Origin: Scenedesmus sp. PABB004 | Taxonomy: Eukaryota | Assembly: GCA_014905635.1 (NCBI GenBank) | Contig: JABVCE010000013.1 | Location: 620,001 to 684,000 of the forward strand | Length of the DNA stretch: 64,000 nucleotides | Direction: 5' to 3' | Shown here: positions 7,361-62,229 of the stretch, one piece after another | Layout of the letters: every line of letters begins with the position of its first letter | How positions within the stretch are numbered: the stretch's first letter is position 1 | The notes under the pieces: model-generated | Databases searched by the model: none | What the model was told of the DNA's origin: nothing | The model's input: the letters and a program-made list of their open reading frames with translations, nothing else | Program-made: the position numbers and the translations under genes

Positions 7361-10300
7361 ATGTCCTCGAGCGACGCCGACAGCGAGCAGGGCGCGCCGG
7401 GCGGGCATGGCGGGCCCGGCGACGCCGTCACGGGCGCGAGCGCGGATCCCCAGGTGCTGCAGCTCTTCTGGGACCTCGCCAGCCTCGCAGAGGTGCGCGC
7501 GCCGGCGCGCTGTCGTGACGCGCGCACGGCGCGCCGCGCGACCGGGCCGGCGGCGCGTCGTGGAGGGGCGAGCCCGGAAGCGCGCCCGCGCTGCGCGCCG
7601 CGGCGCCGCGGGCCCGGGCGGCCGCGCCAGGCGCCGCTGATGGGCGCGCGCCGCCTGCTGCTGCCCCGCGCCGCGCAGGACGTGCGCCTGACGGCCGCCG
7701 GCGCCCTGGTGGCGGCTCTGGTGGACAGCCAGAAGCAGCACGACGCGCAGCACCGCCCCGCGGACGCGCAGCCGGGCGGGAGCCTGGAGGCGGCGGACGC
7801 CGGTGGCGGCGGCCGCGCGGCGCGCATGGAGGCCGCCCTCAGCTGCTGCTCGCCCCTCATGGTGCGGGCACAGGGGCTCGGGGCGGTGGCTCGCCGCGCG
7901 GAGGGGAGGCGGGGGAGCGCCGCCGGCCTGCCGCTGCGACTGCTGCCGCTGCTGCCGCGACGCCGCTGACCGCCGCCGCCCACCCGCCCCGCCGCCCCCG
8001 CCCCCGTGCCCACCAGGCGTACGGCCTGAAGCGCCTGGCGCGCGGCCTCGCGTCCAGCCGCCAGGGCGCGCGGCAGGGCTTCGCCGCAGCGCTCGCGGCC
8101 GTGCTGTCGCGCAGCGCCGCGGCCGCCGCGGCCGCGCCGCCGCGCGGCAAGGGCGGCGGCGGCGGCGGTGAGCTGGCGGCGCCGTTTGTGAGCGCGGCGG
8201 GCGTGCTGGCGCTGCTGGACGCCTGCCTGGAGGTCACCGGCTCGATGAAGGGCTCGGTGCGTGGGCGGGGCGGGGCGGCCGGACAGGCGACGGCAGCGCG
8301 CCGCCGCGCCGCGCCGCGCGCAGGCCCGCCGCCGCCCCCGCGACCGGCGCCGCGGCGGCGCGGCGCAGCGGCACCTATAAGCACCGCCGTGCGGCACCCA
8401 CCCGCACGGCGGCTTTGCAGGGGTTCCAGATTGACCGTGCGCGGGGGGCCGACTATAACCTGCCGCCCGCCAGGGCCCCGCGTCACCGGCAGCGCGCGCC
8501 GCGCCTGCCAGCCACGCGGGGCCCTCACACTCGCATCAACGCACGCGCCCGCGCGCGCGCGCCCGTCCGTCCCTGCCCCCTCCTCCCCGTCCGCGCAGCC
8601 GCCGCTGCTCCTCACGCGCCGCGCCGCGCGCCGCCCCGCCGACCACAGGACCAGCGCGACGCGCTGCTGGGCCGTGTGTTTGGGCTCGCCGCGCTCGCGC
8701 GCAGCGGCCTGGTGGCCGCGCTGCCCGCGGCGCCGCCGGGCGCCGCCAGCGCGGCGCGCGGCGTGGCGGCCGTCGCGGAGCAGCTGGTCGGCCTGCTGCA
8801 GCGCAAGGCGTTCCTGCGAGAGAGCGCGGCGGCGGCGCTCGCGGAGCTGCTGCAGGGGCTGCGCGGCGCCGACATGGCGCAGGTGCTGCGCGAGGCGCCG
8901 CGGCTGTCGGCGCTGCTGGCGGCGGCGCCCGCGTCTGCCAGCCCAGAGGCGCTCATGCTCGCGCTGCGCCTGTGGCACGCGCTGCCGCCGGACGCGCTGG
9001 AGCACTGCCAGCTGCTGCCGCCGCTGCCCGCGGGCGCGGCGCCGCCGCCGGCGCTGTTCTGGCAGCAGCCGGGCGCGGTGCAGCGTGGCGCGGTCGCCGG
9101 CGCGGCGTCCGCGCTCTTCACGGTGGACCAGGTGTCGGCGCTGTGCCCCGCGCTGCTGGCGAGCAGCGCGAGCCACCCGCGGCTGCACCCCGTGTGGGGC
9201 TGCCTGCTGGCGCTGCTCGTGCCCGGCTTTGTGCCCGTGCGGGTGAGCGCCGCCCGAGGCCCGCGCGCCGCCTCGTGGCGCCAACCGGAGGCACGGCGCG
9301 CGCCCGCGCCGCCGCCGCGGCCGCCCGCCGACGCCCACGCGCCCGCGCGCCCGCAGGTGCTGCAGCAGCAGGACGCCGAGCAGGACGCGCCGGCGCGCCG
9401 CGCGGCGCCCGAGGCGCAGCAGCTCGCCGCGCTGTGGCAGGGCTTTGTCGAGCCGTCCTGCCTCAGCAGCAGCCACGAGCGCAAGGCGCTCGCGCTGCAG
9501 CTGCTGCAGCTGCTGCTGCCCGTGCTCACGCCCGACGCCGTGCCGGTGCTGCTCAGCAAGCAGCTGCTCGGCTGCCTGGCCACGGCGCTGCGCAACAAGG
9601 ACTCGTACCTCCACGCAAGCGCCAAGAAGTGCATGGTGAGCCTCCCTTCCCCCTGTTTGTCGGCCGTGTGTGTGTGCGTCTGCTGCGCGCCGGCCGGCGG
9701 CGGGGTGACGAGTCACGTGATTCCCCTACAGACACGCCCTCGGGCGCTGCTGACACACATCCAAAAACAGTCTTCAAAGTTTTCCGACCGCCGCAGCCCG
9801 CGCGCCGCAAGTTGTGTGCGTGTGCGTGTGCGTGGTGGGTCGCCGCTGGCTGGCTCCCGCCGCGGCGCGCAGTTGAGCGGGGTGACGAGTCACGTGATTC
9901 CCCTACAGACACGCCCTCGGGCGCTGCTGACACACATCCAAAAACAGTCTTCAAAGTTTTCTGACCGCTCCGCTGCGTGGCGCGCGGATGGCGCGGCACG
10001 CCGCTCCCCCCTGCAGGCGCGCCGCGGCTGCGCGCCTGGCTGACCGCGCCGCCCCCGCACCGCAGGAGCGCATCAACAGCTGCGCGGAGCACAGCCTCGT
10101 CGTGCGCGACGACCCGGCGCTCGCAGCCAAGCTGCGCCTCGCGCTCGCGGCCGCGCTGCAGGCCGCCAACCTGCAGCCCGGCGGCGCTGGCGCGGGCGCG
10201 AAGGCGCGCAGCGCCGGCGCGGCGCTGCTGGCGGGCCTGGACGGCGCCGGCGCGGCGGCGTACGTCGACCAGCTGCTGGGCGAGTTTGTCGCGGCGGTCG

Positions 10301-13300
10301 GCGGCGGCGACGGCGACAGCGACGACGCCGACGAGGGTGCGCGCGGCGCGAACCGGGCTGGGAGCGCGAGCGTGCCCTGCTGCCTCGCGGGCTGCGTGTG
10401 TGCCGCGCCGCGCCGCGCCGCGCCGCGCCGCGCCGCACTGCGCCGCGCCCGCGGCCGACCTGTGCGCCCCGCCCCGCCGCCCCGTCGCACCGCGCGCAGG
10501 CGAGGAGGAGGCGGAGGAGGAGGAGGACGCGCGCGTGCGGCAGCTGCTGGACCAGCTGTCCGCGGCGCTGCGCTTCGCCGCGTCGGAGCCGGCCACGCTG
10601 CGCAAGGGCCTGACCTTCCTGGCGGCGGCGGCGTTCCTGCGGCCGCCCGCGGGCGTCGACGTCACCGCGCTCGCGGGCGGCAGCGCCGCCGGCAGGCCCG
10701 CGCCCGGCAAGGGCGGCAAGGCCGGCAAGGGCAAGAAGGCCGCGGCGGCGGCGGCGGCCGCCGGCGGCGCGGAGGAGCCGGAGCAGCAGGCGCTCGCGCT
10801 GGCGGCGGCGATGCAGCCGACGCGTGTCGTGCGGCGGCAGTGCGGCGCGCGGCTGATCGCGCTGCTGCACAGCCTGCAGCACCGCGCGGCGCCGCAGCAG
10901 GCCAAGCAGCAGCAGCCGCAGCAGGGCGCCGCGCCCGCCGACGGCGAGGCCGCGGCGGGCGAGAGCAAAAAGGCGCGCAAGGCGCGGCAGCTGGCCGAGG
11001 CCGAGGCCGCCGCTGCGGCCGCGCGCGCGGCCGCGGCGGTCGCGCACGAGGCGCTCGCGGCGCGGCTGCTGAAGCTGGTCGCGGACGCGCAGTCGCTGCA
11101 CGGCGCGGCGGCGACCGCCGACGAGGACGTGCTGGAGATGGTCGAGCAGCTGCAGCGCCTCGCGTCCGCCGTGCAGGCGCACGGCGGCGACGCGGCGCGC
11201 GGCCGCGACGGCCCGGCGGCGCGCGCGCGCGTGTCGGTCGCGCTCGTGCAGCAGCTGCAGCTGCAGCTGCTCGCGGGCGGGCTGTCGACCGAGGCGGCGG
11301 GGTCAGTCGTGGACGACCTGGAACTAGCGCTCGTGCGGGGGCTGGGCATGCCGGACGAGGGCCTGGGCGTCGACGCCGACGGCGTCGCGCGCGCGCTCGC
11401 GAGCGACAGCGACGACGGCGGCGCCAGTGACGGCGACGCCAGCGACGGCGGCGCCAGCGACGGCAGCGACGGCGGCAGCGACGGCAGCGACGGCGAGCCG
11501 GCGTGGGCGGACGTGCTCGTGGACCTGCTGCTCGCGCTGCTGAGCGCGAGCAGCAGCGCGGAGGGCGGCGGGCGCCGCGGCGTGCTCGTGCCGACGGCGC
11601 CGCTGCGCGAGGCGGTGGAGGCGGTGTTCCGGGCCTTTGCCGACGACGTCACCGCCCAGGGTGAGGGCGACGGGGGGGGGGGGGGGGGGGGGGGGGCGGC
11701 GGGGGGCGCCACAGCCGCGCCGCCGCGCCGCCGCGCGCCGCCCGCGGGCCCTCATCCAACTCCGCCGCGACCGCCGCCGCCGCCGCCGCCGCCAGGCCTG
11801 GCCGACCTGCTGCGCGTGCTGGGGCAGCGCGCGAGCGAGGTGGCCAAGGAGCAGGACGAGGAGGGTGACGATGGTGAGATGGAGTTTGACGGCGCGGGCA
11901 GCGCCAGCGATGCCGCGGACGACGACGGCGGCGAGGCCTCGGGTGACTCGTCCGGCGAGGGCGGCGGCAGCGAGGAGGAGGGCGACGAGGGCGAGGAGGA
12001 GGAGGAGGAGGGCGAGGAGGAGGAGGAGGAGGAGGCGGCGGCGCCGCAGCCGGCGGCGGGCAGGGCCGCGGCGGCAGGTGAGGAGGCGGAGGATGATGAT
12101 GACGCGGCGAGCGACCTCGACGACGAGGCGATGCTCCGCCTCGACGCGCAGCTCGGCGCCGCGGTGCGCGCGAGCCTCGCGCGCAGCGGCGGCGGCGCCA
12201 AGGAGCGCGCGGCGGCGCTGCTCGCGCTGCAGCTCCGTGTCGCGGCGCTGGTTGAGGAGTGGCTCAAGCGGGTGCGTGGCAGTGCCTGGGGGCGAGCGGG
12301 CGAGGGGGCGAGGGGGCGAGGGGGGCCGGCGCCCGGGCGCGCGGGGCGGGCGGCGGGGCCGCCGCCGCGGCGGCCACAGCCGCGCGCGCGCCGCCCTGCC
12401 GCCGTGAGCGGCGGCTCACCGCGCGCCCGCTGCCCCGCCGCGCAGTGCCCCAAGAGCCCGCTCGTGCTCGGGGCGGCGCTGCCGCTGCTGCGCGCGCTCG
12501 TGGCGGCGCGCGGCGCGGGCGGCAGCCCCGTGCTCGCCGACCGCCTCGCGGCGCTGCTCACCAAGCACTATGGCCGCTGCAAGCCGGCGCTGCCGCCCGG
12601 CGCGGCGCACGGCGACGCGGCGCCCGCCAACGGCGCCGGCGCCGGCGCTGTGCCGCCGGGGCCCTACTCACTGGCCAGCTTTGAGGCCGACACGCGGAAG
12701 CTGCTGTACCACGCCTCGCGCGACCGCGACGCGCGCGTCGCCGGCGCGGCGGGCACGGCGCTGCTCGTGCTGCTCGCGGCGGGCGCGGACGCGGGCGGCG
12801 GCGCCGCGGCCGCGGCGCAGGCGTGCGCGGGCGCGGCGTTTGAGGACTACTTTGAGAAGAAAAAGTCCCGCCTGCAGCCGGCGTGGTGCGAGGCGCTGCT
12901 CGCGCGCGCGCCCGGCGCCGCGCTCGGCGGCGACGCGCCCGCGCTCGGCGCGCTGCTGCGCGCGGCGGCGCGGCCGCGCAACGACTCGGTGCGGGCGCGC
13001 GCGGTCGCGCTGCTGCCGGCGCTGCTCCGCGGCGGCGCGGGCGGCGGCGCGGTCGCCGCGCTCGCGGCGCAGCCCGCCGCGCTCGCGGCGGCGCTCGGCG
13101 GCGCGGTGTCGGGGCCGTACAGGAGCAAGGAGGGCCACGCCGCGGCGGTCAAGGCCGTGGCGCAGCTGCTTGCGGGCGTGCAGCGGCAGGGCCCGGGCAA
13201 GCGCCTCGCGGAGCTGCTCGGCGGCGAGGCGGTGCGCGAGCTGGGCAAGGCGGTGGTGGTCGTCAAGGTGCGCGGCCGCGATTTGTCCGGTGTTTGTTTT

Positions 13301-14074
13301 ACTTTCGAGGGCGCGGCGCGGCGCGGCGCGGCGCGGCGGCAGCGCACACTCGCACGCACGTACACACGCGTGAGAACCGCACCACAACCTCCACTGCGCT
13401 GGCTCATCTAGCCCAGGCCGTGGCATGGCGGTGCGCAGAGCGACCCCCACGGCCGCCCCCGCCACTTTGTTGTCCCCTGCCGGCCGCGCCAGTGCCGGCT
13501 GGGGCGGACGGGGCCGACAGACGCACCCGCACCCTCCCTCCCTCGCCCTCCCTCTGCCTGCCGCGCCGCCGCGTCTGCTCTCACCTGCGCCGCCCGCGCG
13601 CACTCGTCGCCGCCACAGGCCGCGGGCGTCCCGCCGCGCGTGGAGGGGCAGCTTGAGCGCCTGGTCGAGGCGGCCGGCCTGGAGCAGCTCGTGGCGGCGG
13701 GCAAGCCCGACCCCGCGCGCCTGGCGCTGCTGAACAAGCAGCGCGCGGCGCTGCTGGAGGGCGGCAAGCAGCAGCAGCCGCCGCAGGGCGGCAAGCCGCA
13801 ACAGGCGCAGCCGGCCCAGCAGCCGCAGGGCGGCAAGGGCGGCAAGGGCGGCAAGGGCGGCGAGCCGCAGGGCAAGAGGCGCAAGGACGCCGCGGAGGGC
13901 CAGCAGCAGCACAAGAAGAAGCGCAAGCAGGACGCGGGCGAGGCGGCGGCACAGCCGAAGCAGCCGGGCGGCAAGGAGCAGCAGCAGAAGCAGCCGGGCG
14001 CCAAGCGCAAGCCGGAGGCGGCCGGCGGCGGCAAGGCCCAGGGGGGCAAGAAGAAGGCGAAGCAGCAGCACTGA
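7361..14074 (+). CDS. MYBBP1A: DNA polymerase phi / Myb-binding protein 1A (Pol5/MYBBP1A), nucleolar ARM-like ribosome-biogenesis factor; 9 introns
   Basis: ATG 7361. N-terminal VLQLFWDLASLAE..VRLTAAGALV and YGLKRLARGLASSRQGARQGF motifs, EPAWADVLVDLLLALLS, an acidic stretch followed by LDDEAMLRLDAQL, a K/Q-rich basic C-terminus, TGA at 14072-14074 and TGTAA at 14091. Confidence 0.88.
8370..8532 (+). ncRNA. Putative intronic box H/ACA-like snoRNA (Pol5 intron 3)
   Basis: Hairpin CCGCCGTGCGG..CCGCACGGCGG with internal loop (ATAAGCA / CTTTGC), AGATTG 15 nt after the upper stem (8428-8433), a final 12-bp hairpin AGGGCCCCGCGT/ACGCGGGGCCCT, then ACA at 8527-8529. It sits in an enlarged intron of about 390 nt. 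Confidence 0.45.
9697..9794 (+). ncRNA. Putative box C/D snoRNA, copy 1 (intronic)
   Basis: Terminal stem GCGGCGG/CCGCCGC, box C GTGACGA 9705-9711, D' CAGA 9729-9732, small hairpin, C' CTGCTGA 9747-9753, guide CAGTCTTCAAAGTTTT 9768-9783 and box D variant CCGA 9784-9787. Confidence 0.75.
9875..9970 (+). ncRNA. Putative box C/D snoRNA, copy 2 (intronic)
   Basis: Terminal stem GAGCGG/CCGCTC, box C GTGACGA 9882-9888 and canonical box D CTGA 9961-9964. The body is identical to copy 1 except for one base in box D. Confidence 0.8.
13378..13522 (+). ncRNA. Putative intronic box H/ACA snoRNA (last Pol5 intron)
   Basis: About 145 nt with hairpin-hinge-hairpin-ACA layout: CGCACC/GGTGCG stem with internal loop, AGAGCG at 13437-13442, second hairpin CGGCC../..GGCCG, and ACA at 13517-13519. 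Confidence 0.55.
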
Positions 14075-14090
14075 CGCGCCGGGCGCAGGA

Positions 14091-22963: not shown

Positions 22964-24210
22964 TCAGCTGGCCCTGCTGTCCGCGGCGACGGCCTCCGCG
23001 GCCTTGCCGGCCGCCGCCTCGGGCGCCCCGGCGTCGCCGCCGCCGCCGCCCGCGCCCGCGCCGCTGCTGCCGGCGCCGCTGCTGGTCCCACCGCTGCTGC
23101 CCGCGCCGCTGCTGCCCGCCGCGCGCGCCAGCGCGGCCATGCCCGCGTTGGCGCGCGCGCTCGTGGCCGCCGCCTGCGCGCCCTGCGCATCCGGCGCGCT
23201 CGCCGCCGGCGCCGCTGCGCCCGCCGCCGCGCCCGCCGCCGCCGCGCGCCGCGCCGCGCCGCTGCGCCCGAGCCCCACCGGGCGCCGCGGCCTGCGCGCC
23301 GACGGCCTCGCCCGCGCGCGCGCTGCCCGTGACGCCCTCCATCGCCAGCACCTGAGCGCCGCGCGCGTGCGGCGGCGGCGGCGGCGGCGGCGGCGGGCAC
23401 GTCAGGCGGCAGGCAGGGCGGGCGGGTGGGCCGCGCGGGCCGGCGCGGCGCGGCGGCCACGCGCACCATGGGCGCCAGCGCCTGGCCCCACGGCGTGTTG
23501 AACAGCACGTCCGCCTGGCGCATGATGTAGTCCTGCGAGCGGCGCGCGGGGTCGGCGCGGCCACGCGGCCGGCGCATGCGCGGCCAGCGGGCGGCGCGCG
23601 CGCGCGGCGAGCGCGCGGCGAGCGCCGCGCCGCGCGCCGGCCGCACCGGCAGGCCCTCGCCGACGAGGAGCTGCGCGAGTTCGTGGGCAAAGTGGGTGCA
23701 GTTCATCGAGATGAGCTGGTAGGCCGTCGGCGTGAAGCGCGACGTCGCGAGCTCAGCGACGAGCTCGGCGACCATCTCGCGCGGCACCTCGGTCGTGCTG
23801 CGGCGGCGCGGCGAGCGGCGCGGCGCGTGAGGCGCGGCGCGTGGGCGGCGGCGGTCGGGGCGGCCGGCGCAGGCCAGGGCGGCAGGGCGGTTGCGGCGGC
23901 GGCGCTTGCCCGAGGTCCAGCTTGTGGTGCGGCGTGCCGAACATCGTCGTGCCCGCGCGGGCCTTGCTCACGCCGTAACCGAAGAAGTACTCGTCCGCGC
24001 CGTCGACCACGATGGAGGTGTGCCAGACGCCCTCGATCTGCGCGGCCGCGGCGGCGGCGGCGGCGGCGCGATGAGGCCGCGCGCTGGTCGCCGCGGATGA
24101 GGCCGCGCGCCGCGCCGCGCCGCGCCGCCCACCTGCTGGCCGAGCAGCATCGGGCTGAGGCTGGCCGCCATGCCACGTGTGAGGTCGTAGACCCAGCAGG
24201 AGACGTTCAT
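22964..24210 (-). CDS. DESI1: PPPDE-family desumoylating isopeptidase (DeSI-1-like); 4 introns; 3' end ambiguous (22964 or 22845)
   Basis: [60 protein letters not shown]: catalytic His (HTSI) and Cys (NCxHF). Confidence 0.9.
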
Positions 24211-26094: not shown

Positions 26095-30836
<4,742 letters not shown>

Positions 30837-32009: not shown

Positions 32010-32207
32010 CTGGATCGTCGGCTGCTGGCGGCTTCGGCGCGCGGCCGAGGCGGCGGCGGCGTGGGCGGCGGCGGCGTTTGAGCCGGGGCGCATCCCCGAG
32101 GCCGCGCCGCCGCCCGAGGTGTGCTGAGGCGGTCGTGTAATGCCTCCCCAGCGCGTGTGGGGGGCAAAAGGGGCGAAACGGCCGGTTTGGGGCCCAAAAA
32201 TCGCGAG

Positions 32208-32279
32208 AGGCCCTACCCAGGTTTGAACTGGGGTCACAGGATTCAGAGTCCTGTGTGCTAACCACTACACCATAGGGCC
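32208..32279 (-). tRNA. tRNA-Gln (anticodon CUG), copy in the left inverted-repeat arm
   Basis: Exact reverse complement of 39493-39564; T5 terminator at 32196-32200 on the minus strand. Confidence 0.95.
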
Positions 32280-32763
32280 GGAGTAGTGTCGAGCGCCGGT
32301 GAAGGCGCCGAGGTAGGAGCATGTGCATCAAGCGCGCACGTAGCGTACATGTAAAGTGTGTCTCAAAAATGACAACTGCCTCGAGGAGCCATTCTTTTGC
32401 ACCGCCGACCCCGCCATATCTTGGCAAGACCCAGGCGCGACCGTCACAAACGCGTCCGGGCCGCGCGCACGCGCAAAAAACGACGATTTACATCAAATAA
32501 TGAAAGACGCGCCGCACGCCACGTCCGTGCGACCGGGCCGGAGCCCTCCCACGGCTGCCCGCGCCGCCGCAGGCCGCGCCTGCGGCGGCTCTGCACGGCG
32601 GCGCACAGCGGCTGCCCGCGCTGCCGTGCCATGATGGGGGCCGGTCGGCCGGTCCAGCGATTACAGAGCAGCCGCCGCAAACGCGCGGGAAGCGGTCTGG
32701 GGCGCCGGCCTGTTCGCCGGCTGGCCGGCGCCAGCCAGGGCCACCACCCATCCCCCTTTGCAC

Positions 32764-39008: not shown

Positions 39009-39492
39009 GTGCAAAGGGGGATGGGTGGTGGCCCTGGCTGGCGCCGGCCAGCCGGCGAACAGGCCGGCGCCCCAGACCGCTTCCCGCGCGTTTGCGGCGG
39101 CTGCTCTGTAATCGCTGGACCGGCCGACCGGCCCCCATCATGGCACGGCAGCGCGGGCAGCCGCTGTGCGCCGCCGTGCAGAGCCGCCGCAGGCGCGGCC
39201 TGCGGCGGCGCGGGCAGCCGTGGGAGGGCTCCGGCCCGGTCGCACGGACGTGGCGTGCGGCGCGTCTTTCATTATTTGATGTAAATCGTCGTTTTTTGGG
39301 CGTGCGCGCGGCCCGGACGCGTTTGTGACGGTCGCGCCTGGGTCTTGCCAAGATATGGCGGGGTCGGCGGTGCAAAAGAATGGCTCCTCGAGGCAGTTGT
39401 CATTTTTGAGACACACTTTACATGTACGCTACGTGCGCGCTTGATGCACATGCTCCTACCTCGGCGCCTTCACCGGCGCTCGACACTACTCC

Positions 39493-39564
39493 GGCCCTAT
39501 GGTGTAGTGGTTAGCACACAGGACTCTGAATCCTGTGACCCCAGTTCAAACCTGGGTAGGGCCT
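39493..39564 (+). tRNA. tRNA-Gln (anticodon CUG)
   Basis: GGCCCTA/TAGGGCC acceptor stem, D arm GTGTAGTGGTTAGCAC, anticodon arm CAGGA-CTCTGAA-TCCTG, T arm CCCAG-TTCAAAC-CTGGG and U discriminator; 72 nt, no intron. Confidence 0.97.
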
Positions 39565-39571
39565 CTCGCGA

Positions 39572-39576
39572 TTTTT
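39572..39576 (+). terminator. RNA polymerase III terminator (T5) of tRNA-Gln
   Basis: TTTTT 7 nt downstream of the tRNA 3' end. Confidence 0.75.
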
Positions 39577-39644
39577 GGGCCCCAAACCGGCCGTTTCGCC
39601 CCTTTTGCCCCCCACACGCGCTGGGGAGGCGTTACACGACCGCC

Positions 39645-41671
39645 TCAGCACACCTCGGGCGGCGGCGCGGCCTCGGGGATGCGCCCCGGCTCAAACGCCG
39701 CCGCCGCCCACGCCGCCGCCGCCTCGGCCGCGCTCATGCCGCCCTCGCCGCTCGCGGCTGCGGGCGACGCGCCGCCGCCGCTCGCTGCAGGCGCCGCCGC
39801 GGCGGGCGGCGGCGTGGCGGGCGGCGGCGCGGGCGACCCAAACGCGGGTGCCGCCGGCGCTGTGCCGAGGCCGCCCGTGATCCAGTCGTCGCCGGCAGCG
39901 TCCGAGACCTGGCCAAACATGGCCTTGGGCCGCCCGCCCGCGGCTGCCTGGCCAAACGCAGCGCCGCCAGACCCAAACCCGCCCGGCGGCTGCGGCGCGG
40001 CTGCCCTGCCAAACAGCACCTTGCCGGGCGCCGCGCCAAAGCCGCCGGCGCCGGCAGCGCCAAACGCTGGCGCCGGCGCAGCCGCGCCGAACGCCGCTGC
40101 CGCGCCAAAGGCCGCCGGCGCGCCAAACCCGGTCGGCTGCTGCGGCGGCTGCGGCTGGCCGAACTGCGCGGGCTGCTGTGGCTGGCCAAACGGTGCGGGC
40201 TGCTGCTGCCCGCCGTCGGTGGCCATCGCTGCGTCCATGCCGGCCGCCTGGCCAAAGCCGCCAAACGCGCCGGGCACCGCTGCGGCCGAGCCGAAGCCGC
40301 GAGGCGCTGCCTGCGCCGCCGCGCCAAAGCCGCCGCCAAAACCCTGCGCTGGCTGCTGCTGCTGCTGCTGCTGCTGGGCGGCCTTGCCGAACAGGGTCTT
40401 GCCGGGCTGCGCAGCCTGCTGCTGCGCCGCCGGCTGCTGCGCGAGCGCCTGCTCCACGCCGCCGCTGGTGAACAGGGCGACGTAGGGGTTGGGCCGGGGC
40501 CGGAAGGCCCCCGCGGCGGGCGGCCGCCCGCTGGAGCGCACCAGCTGGGCGGCGGCCGCGGACGGGCGCGCGCGGGCGGTTTTGGGGGGGGGGGGGGGGG
40601 CGTGGGCGCCAGCGCTGCACGGCGCGCGGCGCGCGGCGCGCCACCGCCAGCTGCGCGCGTGCGCTCTCTCACCCTCAGCAGGTCATCAAACTCCTGCTGC
40701 TTCACCCGCACCGCCGCCTGCAGCTCCTGCTGCAGCGCCGCGGGCTGCCGCGCGCCGCTGCGCGCCTCGGCGACGTCGCGCCAGCGCGCCTCCTCCGGCG
40801 AGACGTCGCCTGGCGGCGGCGGCGGCGGCGGCGGCGGTCGATCGGGCGACCCTCGCTCGCCGCGCGCCGCAGCGCGGCGCGGCTCGCGGGCGCAAGCGGC
40901 ACTGCGCGGCGGCTCGTCGCGGCGGCGGCAGGCGCACCCCGAATGGTGCTCGGCTGCTCCCGGTCAATGCCGTAGCAACTCAGCAGCCAGCGCGGCCGGT
41001 CGGTCTGCAGGTCCTGCTGCGCCGCAGCGCGGTAGTCCTGCTGCTCTCCCCGCGGGCCGCCGCTGCCGCCGCCGCCGCCGCCGCCGCGGCTGCCGCCGCC
41101 CCGGCTGCCGCCGCTGCCGAAGCTGCTGCCGCCGCCCCTGCTGCTTCCAAAGCCGCCGCCGCCGCCGCCGCCGCCTCCCCGGGGCGGGGGCGGCGGGGGC
41201 GGGGGCTCCTGATAGCTGCTCAGCGCGCCAAAGCGGTTGCCGCCGCCGCCGCCCCGGTCGTCGCGGTACTGCTGCTGCCCCCCGCTGCGGCCGCCCCTGC
41301 TGCCGCCGCCGCCGCGGTAGCCGCCGCCGCTCCTGCCGCCCCCGCCGCCGCGGCTGTCGTAGCCGTCATGGTGCTGCTGCGGGGGCCCGCCGCCGCCCTG
41401 CGACCGCGCAGGCGGCGGTTGGGTCGGGCGCGCGGCGCCGCCGCCGCGCGGCAGCCGACGCCCGCGCCGCGCCGCCGCCGCACCTGGTAGCCACCACGGC
41501 CCTGGCTGTTGCTGCTGTAGCCGCCTGCGGGGCGGCGCGCGGGCATGGGCGCGGCGCCCGGGCGCGGAGGCAGCGGCGCCGGACGACGGGCTTCTGCCGC
41601 CGCCGCTGCTGCTGCTGGTGCGCACCGCGGTTGCTGCCGCTTCCCCAGCGCGGTCCGCCGCCGCCGCCCAT
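39645..41671 (-). CDS. NUP42: FG-repeat nucleoporin NUP42/hCG1/Amo1-like
   Basis: WLLSCYG..GDVSPEEAR motif, many FG repeats (GFGG, PFGQ, AFGA), and C-terminal FEPGRIPEAAPPPEVC resembling the Gle1-binding tail; ATG at 41671. Confidence 0.8.
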
Positions 41672-61736: not shown

Positions 61737-62229
61737 GCCGCCCGCTGCCGCCTGAGTGTCGCTCCCTGGCGGCGGCTGAACGGCCGAGGCGCTTGTCCGA
61801 CTCTAGAGCCGCTCACCGGCACGGCGCGGGCGGTCGCGCCGCGATCCTGCGCGGCGGCCGGGGCGCCCCGCCTTGTCGGCCGGCCCGTCGCTGCTCGGGC
61901 GGGCGCGCGATCGCCACGGCATCCCCCGCCAGTGGAGAGAATGCCGACGACAGCGGGCGGGCGGCCGGCAGCTCCGTGTGCAGCGAGCGCCGCGCTTTTG
62001 TTGCTGGCGGAGCCGCCGGCACACTCCCTGGACCTGAGCGGAGCGCCCAGTTCGCCGCCCTGGCCCGTGAATGTCCCGTCCGCGGCCCAGGGGCCGGCGG
62101 GCGAGGCCGGCGCCCGCCGCCGCGCGGCGGGCGATCGCGGCGGCGATGCGGGCAATCGTCGCGCCGCGAAAAAGCAAAGTTGAATGCAGCGCCCCGCAAC
62201 CGCCTGCCTCACGCACGGCCCACGGCCAA

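Follow-up and report, generated by a model that had tools for sequence, protein, structure and literature searches.

The snoR160a/Z270a/CrCD18 family of C/D small nucleolar RNAs (snoRNAs) is represented in published supplementary lists by rice and maize snoR160a (also Z270a) and by Chlamydomonas CrCD18 (also Z270), which have a guide core in common (PMC5122169, files 2 and 8); in Chlamydomonas reinhardtii three copies, CrCD18-1, -2 and -3, lie in tandem on the minus strand of one scaffold (DS496113:1674044-1674690; PMC5122169, file 2). For Arabidopsis, a RiboMethSeq list of 2'-O-methylated sites includes Cm1447, assigned to U24, and, at a spacing of +32, Cm1479 (PMC8583080); its supplement gives the context of the latter as AAATGAGAA-Cm-TTTGAAGGC and shows the guide, At1gCDbox23.1, ending in CCUUCAAAGUUCUCUGA (PMC8583080). 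Cm1479 is described there as partially methylated, and its NUC1 dependence led to its inclusion in the map (PMC8583080). Among the matches listed by a literature search on MYBBP1A and snoRNA host introns, none concerned Pol5 as a host, as judged from titles and abstract beginnings. Here we describe a 64,000-nucleotide (nt) stretch of the green alga Scenedesmus sp. PABB004 (contig JABVCE010000013.1, positions 620,001 to 684,000, forward strand; hereafter the window, numbered from its first letter), in which the third intron of a Pol5/MYBBP1A gene carries, with a probability that we put at roughly 85%, two tandem C/D snoRNA genes of this family.

A tandem pair of C/D snoRNA genes in intron 3

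The elements recognized in the intron were as follows.

9636 to 10065, + strand: host intron 3, 430 nt, GTGAGC...CAG, 69.1% GC
9697 to 9794, + strand: C/D snoRNA copy 1 with terminal stem; C box GTGACGA at 9705-9711, D' box CAGA at 9729-9732, C' box CTGCTGA at 9747-9753, D guide at 9768-9783, variant D box CCGA at 9784-9787
9875 to 9970, + strand: C/D snoRNA copy 2 with terminal stem; C box GTGACGA at 9882-9888, D' box CAGA at 9906-9909, C' box CTGCTGA at 9924-9930, D box CTGA at 9961-9964
9945 to 9960, + strand: D guide of copy 2, CAGTCTTCAAAGTTTT, pairing over 16 nt with large-subunit (LSU) ribosomal RNA (rRNA), one pair being G-U

The two copies were recognized from a direct repeat of 92 nt, spanning 9700-9791 and again 9877-9968, whose single mismatch falls at the D box position; the flanks of the repeat align loosely, and identity breaks off sharply at both ends of the core. 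Both copies have the order C box, guide, D' box, internal hairpin, C' box, guide and D box, with one mismatch to the consensus in the C box of each; the D box of copy 2 is CTGA, that of copy 1 CCGA. An internal CTGA was considered as the D' box and rejected, since C' accommodates it better. A terminal stem lies next to the boxes, with six consensus pairs common to the copies, two of which are preserved by double-sided changes (C-G against G-C, and G-C against A-U). The D guide is intact in both. The cores have a GC content of 57%, in a window of approximately 80% GC with short introns at 87–90%, which is consistent with constraint opposing GC drift. A C/D tandem pair in this intron had been proposed in a first-pass annotation of the DNA, and the repeat, the boxes, the stems and the match to LSU rRNA described below bear this out.

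Alternatively, the units could be recent duplicates that are now inactive pseudogenes, the working guide residing elsewhere in the genome. The mutation of the D box of copy 1 to CCGA and the non-canonical C box point in that direction, and copy 1 may be weaker or decaying, whereas the D box of copy 2 is canonical. Against such decay, however, the 92-nt cores were kept while their flanks diverged, the two compensatory pairs maintain the terminal stems, neither guide is damaged and the cores have remained low in GC despite strong GC drift; we regard the pseudogene explanation as very unlikely.

Predicted target of the guide

Reference rRNAs were obtained from metagenome contigs fetched with a degenerate motif and annotated with Rfam, yielding four complete ribosomal DNA (rDNA) units, one of which is designated L130. 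Scans of viral contigs gave chance matches alone and no rDNA with the target motif of the guide, and four chance matches, none with a C box, with the guide plus D box. In L130 the D guide forms a duplex of 16–17 nt with LSU rRNA at GAGAACTTTGAAGACTG (16 nt with one G-U pair), and in the three other units a duplex of 15 nt. When the 212 CTGA sites of the window, counted over both strands, were compared, a box-adjacent duplex of at least 12 nt was found at five, and the only site at which it occurred in all four rRNA sets was the D box of copy 2. Complementarity of at least 10 nt directly beside the box, with a target placed by the fifth-nucleotide rule, is therefore present, the base facing the fifth nucleotide upstream of the D box being the C of GAGAAC. 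In all four rRNAs this C is found 32 nt further 3' than the C in AGATCTTGG. Because both the +32 spacing and the sequence context are the same, the targeted C is, by sequence, the same site as Cm1479 on the Arabidopsis 25S rRNA map. U24 itself was rejected as the identity of the C/D RNA, the U24 sites lying 32 nt upstream of the target. The earlier proposal of a guide for 25S modification is thus upheld for the C/D pair by its complementarity at the predicted Cm1479-equivalent position.

In the pathway that we envisage for this alga, the pair would be expressed with its host, the C/D units being freed either from the pre-mRNA or, after splicing, from the intron. Their ends would then be trimmed as far as the terminal stem and C/D kink-turn, which would be guarded by the core snoRNP proteins fibrillarin, Nop56, Nop58 and Snu13. 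Pairing with LSU rRNA at GAGAAC-UUUGAAGACUG would involve the 16 nt that precede the D box, and fibrillarin would 2'-O-methylate the C that precedes the hyphen, which faces the fifth guide nucleotide and would be the equivalent of Arabidopsis Cm1479.

Family membership was assessed in two ways. The D guide and its rRNA target are those of the Z270 family, the guide core being identical to that of rice, maize and Chlamydomonas. In an Rfam search at a permissive threshold the best match was RF00203 (snoR160), over its full length and to copy 2 only, the model having been built from land-plant members. Five points weigh against assigning the pair to working genes of this family: the RF00203 score was 23.9 bits (E-value 2.5), short of the 42 bits at which the family is gathered; the C box GTGACGA departs from RUGAUGA by one mismatch; copy 1 has CCGA instead of CUGA; the D' guide pairs with LSU rRNA over only 9–10 nt, and a second target is unproven; and rRNAs from metagenome contigs were used as a stand-in for the alga's own.

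The host gene and its introns

The following features describe the gene in which the pair is embedded.

8016 to 14075, + strand: Pol5/MYBBP1A (DNA_pol_phi) host gene, from an acceptor at 8016 to the stop codon, eight exons within the span
8649 to 9242, 9360 to 9638, 10502 to 11659 and 11798 to 12271, + strand: exon translations matching PF04931
8257 to 8648, + strand: intron 1, 392 nt
9243 to 9356, + strand: intron 2, 114 nt
9636 to 10065, + strand: intron 3, 430 nt, as above
10337 to 10499, + strand: intron 4, 163 nt
11661 to 11795, + strand: intron 5, 135 nt
12272 to 12445, + strand: intron 6, 174 nt
13268 to 13618, + strand: intron 7, 351 nt

All seven introns are bounded by GT and AG, and their removal from 8016-14075 leaves a single open frame of 1432 codons up to the stop. 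Four of seven exon translations matched Pfam DNA_pol_phi (PF04931) with E-values of 4e-9 to 4e-14 and bit scores of 35.6–52.1 (gathering cut-off 27.6), in the order of the profile and covering its positions 58–762 of 765. Introns 1, 3 and 7, at 392, 430 and 351 nt, are longer than the other four (114–174 nt) and lower in GC (82.4, 69.1 and 74.4%, compared with 86.5–90.4%), the GC content of the whole window being 79.6%. Just inside the 5' end of the intron at 11661-11795, an uninterrupted G run of more than 20 nt was seen at approximately 11670-11700.

The first-pass annotation was accurate in these respects. Its identification of the host as Pol5/MYBBP1A agrees with the DNA_pol_phi matches, its estimates of about 390, 430 and 350 nt for the three longest introns agree with the measured lengths, its description of these introns as less GC-rich is correct, and the span that it gave, 8257..13618, runs exactly from the first donor to the last acceptor.

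H/ACA-like islands in introns 1 and 7

The other two long introns each contain an island that had been read as an H/ACA-like RNA.

8370 to 8532, + strand: intron 1 island, unproven H/ACA-like candidate; hairpin A at 8370-8427, AGATTGA at 8428-8434, hairpin B at 8435-8475, hairpin C at 8472-8525, ACA at 8527-8529
13380 to 13522, + strand: intron 7 island, H/ACA-like reading unsupported; AGAGCGA at 13437-13443, ACA at 13517-13519

An H box of the form ANANNA was found nowhere in intron 1 or intron 7. H-like motifs are present instead, AGATTG(A) at 8428 in intron 1 and AGAGCG(A) at 13437 in intron 7, so that each island has AGANNGA 73–99 nt upstream of its ACA box (8527 and 13517, respectively). 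Rfam, which in intron 3 had returned the RF00203 match below threshold, identified no snoRNA in these two introns even in a permissive search, the matches being noise (bacterial small RNA and microRNA models, E-values 0.3–9). We also applied our own scan, modelled on snoGPS, which combined the box, a spacing of 14–16 nt, upper and lower stems and bipartite pairing on either side of a U; at a minimum of 11 base pairs (bp) it gave no match in either island, and at 9 bp it gave weak matches with two G-U pairs in intron 7. Contiguous antisense elements to rRNA of at least 13 nt were absent from both introns. Six 12-mers taken from the two islands were not found in the supplement of plant and Chlamydomonas snoRNAs, nor were three rRNA-site strings found in the plant snoRNA supplement, and BLAST of the islands against the window gave low-complexity GC matches alone.

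Neither island passed a strict filter on hairpin and box geometry, which in the whole window was passed by one H-like/ACA pair, at 61950/62021. That pair (61880-62030, + strand; ACAGCG at 61950, ACA at 62021) has no target conserved in all four rRNA sets. A relaxed filter was passed by both islands as well, among 41 H-like/ACA pairs in all on both strands of the 64 kb, several of which lie in exons, on antisense strands or adjoining transfer RNAs (tRNAs). With regard to base composition, the islands have about 74–75% GC, against 87–90% in the short introns; low-GC islands in themselves are frequent in the window, which contains 71 regions in which 80-nt GC falls below 0.66, but these do not include the island of intron 1, at 74.9% GC. 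Because 41 pairs pass the relaxed filter and neither island passes the strict one, the H/ACA-like architecture of the two islands by itself is no more than chance would produce in this GC-rich DNA, and an origin as snoRNAs is not established by it. The snoRNA architecture ascribed to them in the first-pass annotation was therefore not confirmed beyond chance, lacking as it does an ANANNA box and strict geometry, and the snoGPS-type scan lent it no match at 11 bp or more.

That annotation had gone further and proposed that all three long introns encode snoRNAs, an H/ACA RNA, the C/D pair and a second H/ACA RNA, making Pol5 a multi-intron host. Both islands pass the relaxed geometry, have AGANNGA at a similar distance from the ACA and are richer in AT than the short introns, all of which would suit this proposal. 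For intron 7, on the other hand, the folding z score was +0.19 (13380-13525) and +0.58 to +0.85 in sliding windows, no ANANNA box or Rfam match is available, none of the pocket targets is shared by all four rRNA sets and the 3' pocket, unless part of the upper stem is unpaired, begins at a distance of 12 nt from the ACA; the absence of the six island 12-mers from the plant and Chlamydomonas supplement likewise counts against a snoRNA in every long intron. An H/ACA snoRNA in intron 7, for which nothing beyond the motifs was found, is unlikely, and snoRNAs in all three introns are highly improbable. The multi-intron host claim is not established; the part of it that stands is the C/D pair of intron 3, whereas introns 1 and 7 offer neither a canonical H box nor an Rfam match.

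Of the two islands, the one in intron 1 alone has some independent support. It might, tentatively, be a non-canonical H/ACA snoRNA composed of hairpin A, the H-like AGAUUG, hairpins B and C and the ACA box, although we think this less likely than not. In such an RNA the pocket of hairpin C would guide pseudouridylation of the LSU U equivalent to the yeast pseudouridine (Psi) Psi2826, the first U of GGCUUGUGG. Of 73 windows of 150 nt across the gene, only two folded with a z score below -2.5, both in intron 1 (8275-8424, z -2.84; 8425-8574, z -2.9). The pocket of hairpin C, whose 5' strand ends at 8486 and whose 3' strand starts at 8511, 16 nt before the ACA, forms 4+5 bp, including one G-U, with TGGC-TT-GTGGC, a site conserved in four of four rRNA sets, and a conserved match of this kind occurs at only 15 of 795 ACA boxes in the window. 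The target U (LSU position 2811 in L130) corresponds to yeast Psi2826 by spacing, a register that places the right base at 12 of 12 other yeast 25S sites, compared with only 4 of 12 in the alternative register. Four of these 12 are cited in PMC11121408, in which Psi2826, m5C2870, Psi2880, Um2921 and Gm2922 are named and Psi2826 is called universally conserved. The pocket of hairpin A, with its top 14–15 nt from AGATTG, forms 7+3 bp with the small-subunit rRNA sequence CTGCGAA-TG-GCT in three of four sets, and H boxes ending in G have a precedent in 3 of the 21 listed Chlamydomonas CrACA entries.

The difficulties of an H/ACA snoRNA in intron 1 are of several kinds. In addition to the lack of an ANANNA box and of an Rfam snoRNA match, hairpin B is a surplus element that separates hairpin C from the H-like box; the pocket comprises only 5+5 nt, leaves one nucleotide unpaired on each side and requires an opened lower stem for one guide pair; strict geometry failed, and the relaxed form is passed by 41 pairs in all; and many pocket registers were tried. 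The same target is also matched a second time by chance, antisense in an exon at ACA 9144, this match being one of the 15 conserved ones. This H/ACA-like site (9135-9232, - strand, antisense to a Pol5 exon) pairs over 5+5 bp with the same LSU U. Because it pairs too, the GC-rich LSU target must be regarded as easily matched in this genome.

A broader proposal would make Pol5 a dual-class host, with the C/D pair in intron 3 and, in intron 1, a non-canonical three-hairpin H/ACA RNA for the universally conserved pseudouridine of the peptidyl-transferase centre (Psi2826/Psi2457), the Z270/CrCD18 cluster having resided in a Pol5 intron since the ancestor shared with Chlamydomonas. We consider this doubtful; if it were true, one gene for 60S assembly would co-deliver two guides for 25S modification.

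Other features of the window

At gathering thresholds, Rfam recognized two tRNAs only in the whole window, and no rRNA. Side features are given below.

32207 to 32279, - strand: tRNA-Gln(CTG), within the low-GC island 32120-32562 (about 440 nt)
39493 to 39565, + strand: tRNA-Gln(CTG), within the low-GC island 39210-39650 (about 440 nt)
24056 to 24129, - strand: tRNA-Met(CAT), predicted by ARAGORN, not in the Rfam list at the gathering threshold
approximately 28790 to 29012: (AC)n microsatellite of about 220 nt

The two tRNA-Gln(CTG) genes have identical Rfam scores (67.8 bits), are inverted and lie about 7 kb apart, and may represent an inverted duplication. The microsatellite is the cause of one of the window's largest regions of low GC.

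Significance

The tandem pair adds two snoRNA genes that are invisible to an open reading frame track, with a precise rRNA target that has been mapped experimentally in Arabidopsis, and provides a further green-algal case of a ribosome-biogenesis gene as the host of rRNA modification guides. In a genome of about 80% GC, low-GC islands combined with rRNA complementarity detect C/D snoRNAs well. H/ACA-like patterns of hairpins and boxes, by comparison, often arise by chance here, and expression or conservation data are therefore needed for that class.

Comparison with known snoRNAs

For the intron 1 candidate, the closest described system is yeast snR34, an H/ACA RNA for 25S Psi2826 (Psi2457 in Escherichia coli), to which it is similar in that its pocket faces the equivalent U. 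It differs in having no sequence or Rfam likeness to snR34, a non-canonical H-like box, three hairpins and a minimal pairing of 4+5 bp. In the supplement of Ostreococcus tauri snoRNAs, the predicted target of the snR34 entry is a different one, and no C/D guide like that of intron 3 is listed.

The C/D pair has closer counterparts. Arabidopsis At1gCDbox23.1 (AtsnoTAIRsnoRNA6) is assigned to the same rRNA site, AAATGAGAA-Cm-TTTGAAGGC, has a D guide ending in ...CUUCAAAGUUCU ahead of CUGA and is among the RNAs listed for the fibrillarin (FIB2) immunoprecipitate (PMC8583080); as a difference, methylation of the Arabidopsis site is reported as only partial (PMC8583080). The 'snoR160' of two Arabidopsis papers is another RNA, of the H/ACA class, with the same name. 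With grass snoR160a (Z270a, RF00203) the window copies share the D guide core GUCUUCAAAGUU and a C box that is non-canonical at the same position; because the grass members have ATGAGGA or ATGAAGA, the position occupied by C in the window evidently varies across the family. The interior of the window copy, by contrast, is GC-rich and unrelated, in line with the score of 23.9 bits against the gathering score of 42.

The greatest likeness is to Chlamydomonas CrCD18. In a comparison by eye, the window copy matches CrCD18-1 at 12 of 13 nt where the 5' end forms the terminal stem and C box, and at 23 of 24 nt in the 3'-terminal part, which takes in the D guide, the D box and the terminal stem; the internal hairpin, the box order and the tandem arrangement of copies a few hundred nt apart are also found in CrCD18 (PMC5122169). 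The two loci differ in copy number (three in Chlamydomonas, two in the window), in the C box (GTGATGA or TTGATGA, against GTGACGA) and in the interior, where the D' guide is unrelated and the window copy has 11 additional nt between C' and the D guide. Judged on boxes, guide and predicted target, the Scenedesmus pair is a new addition to the known snoR160a/Z270a/CrCD18 family, in a tandem layout already known from Chlamydomonas.

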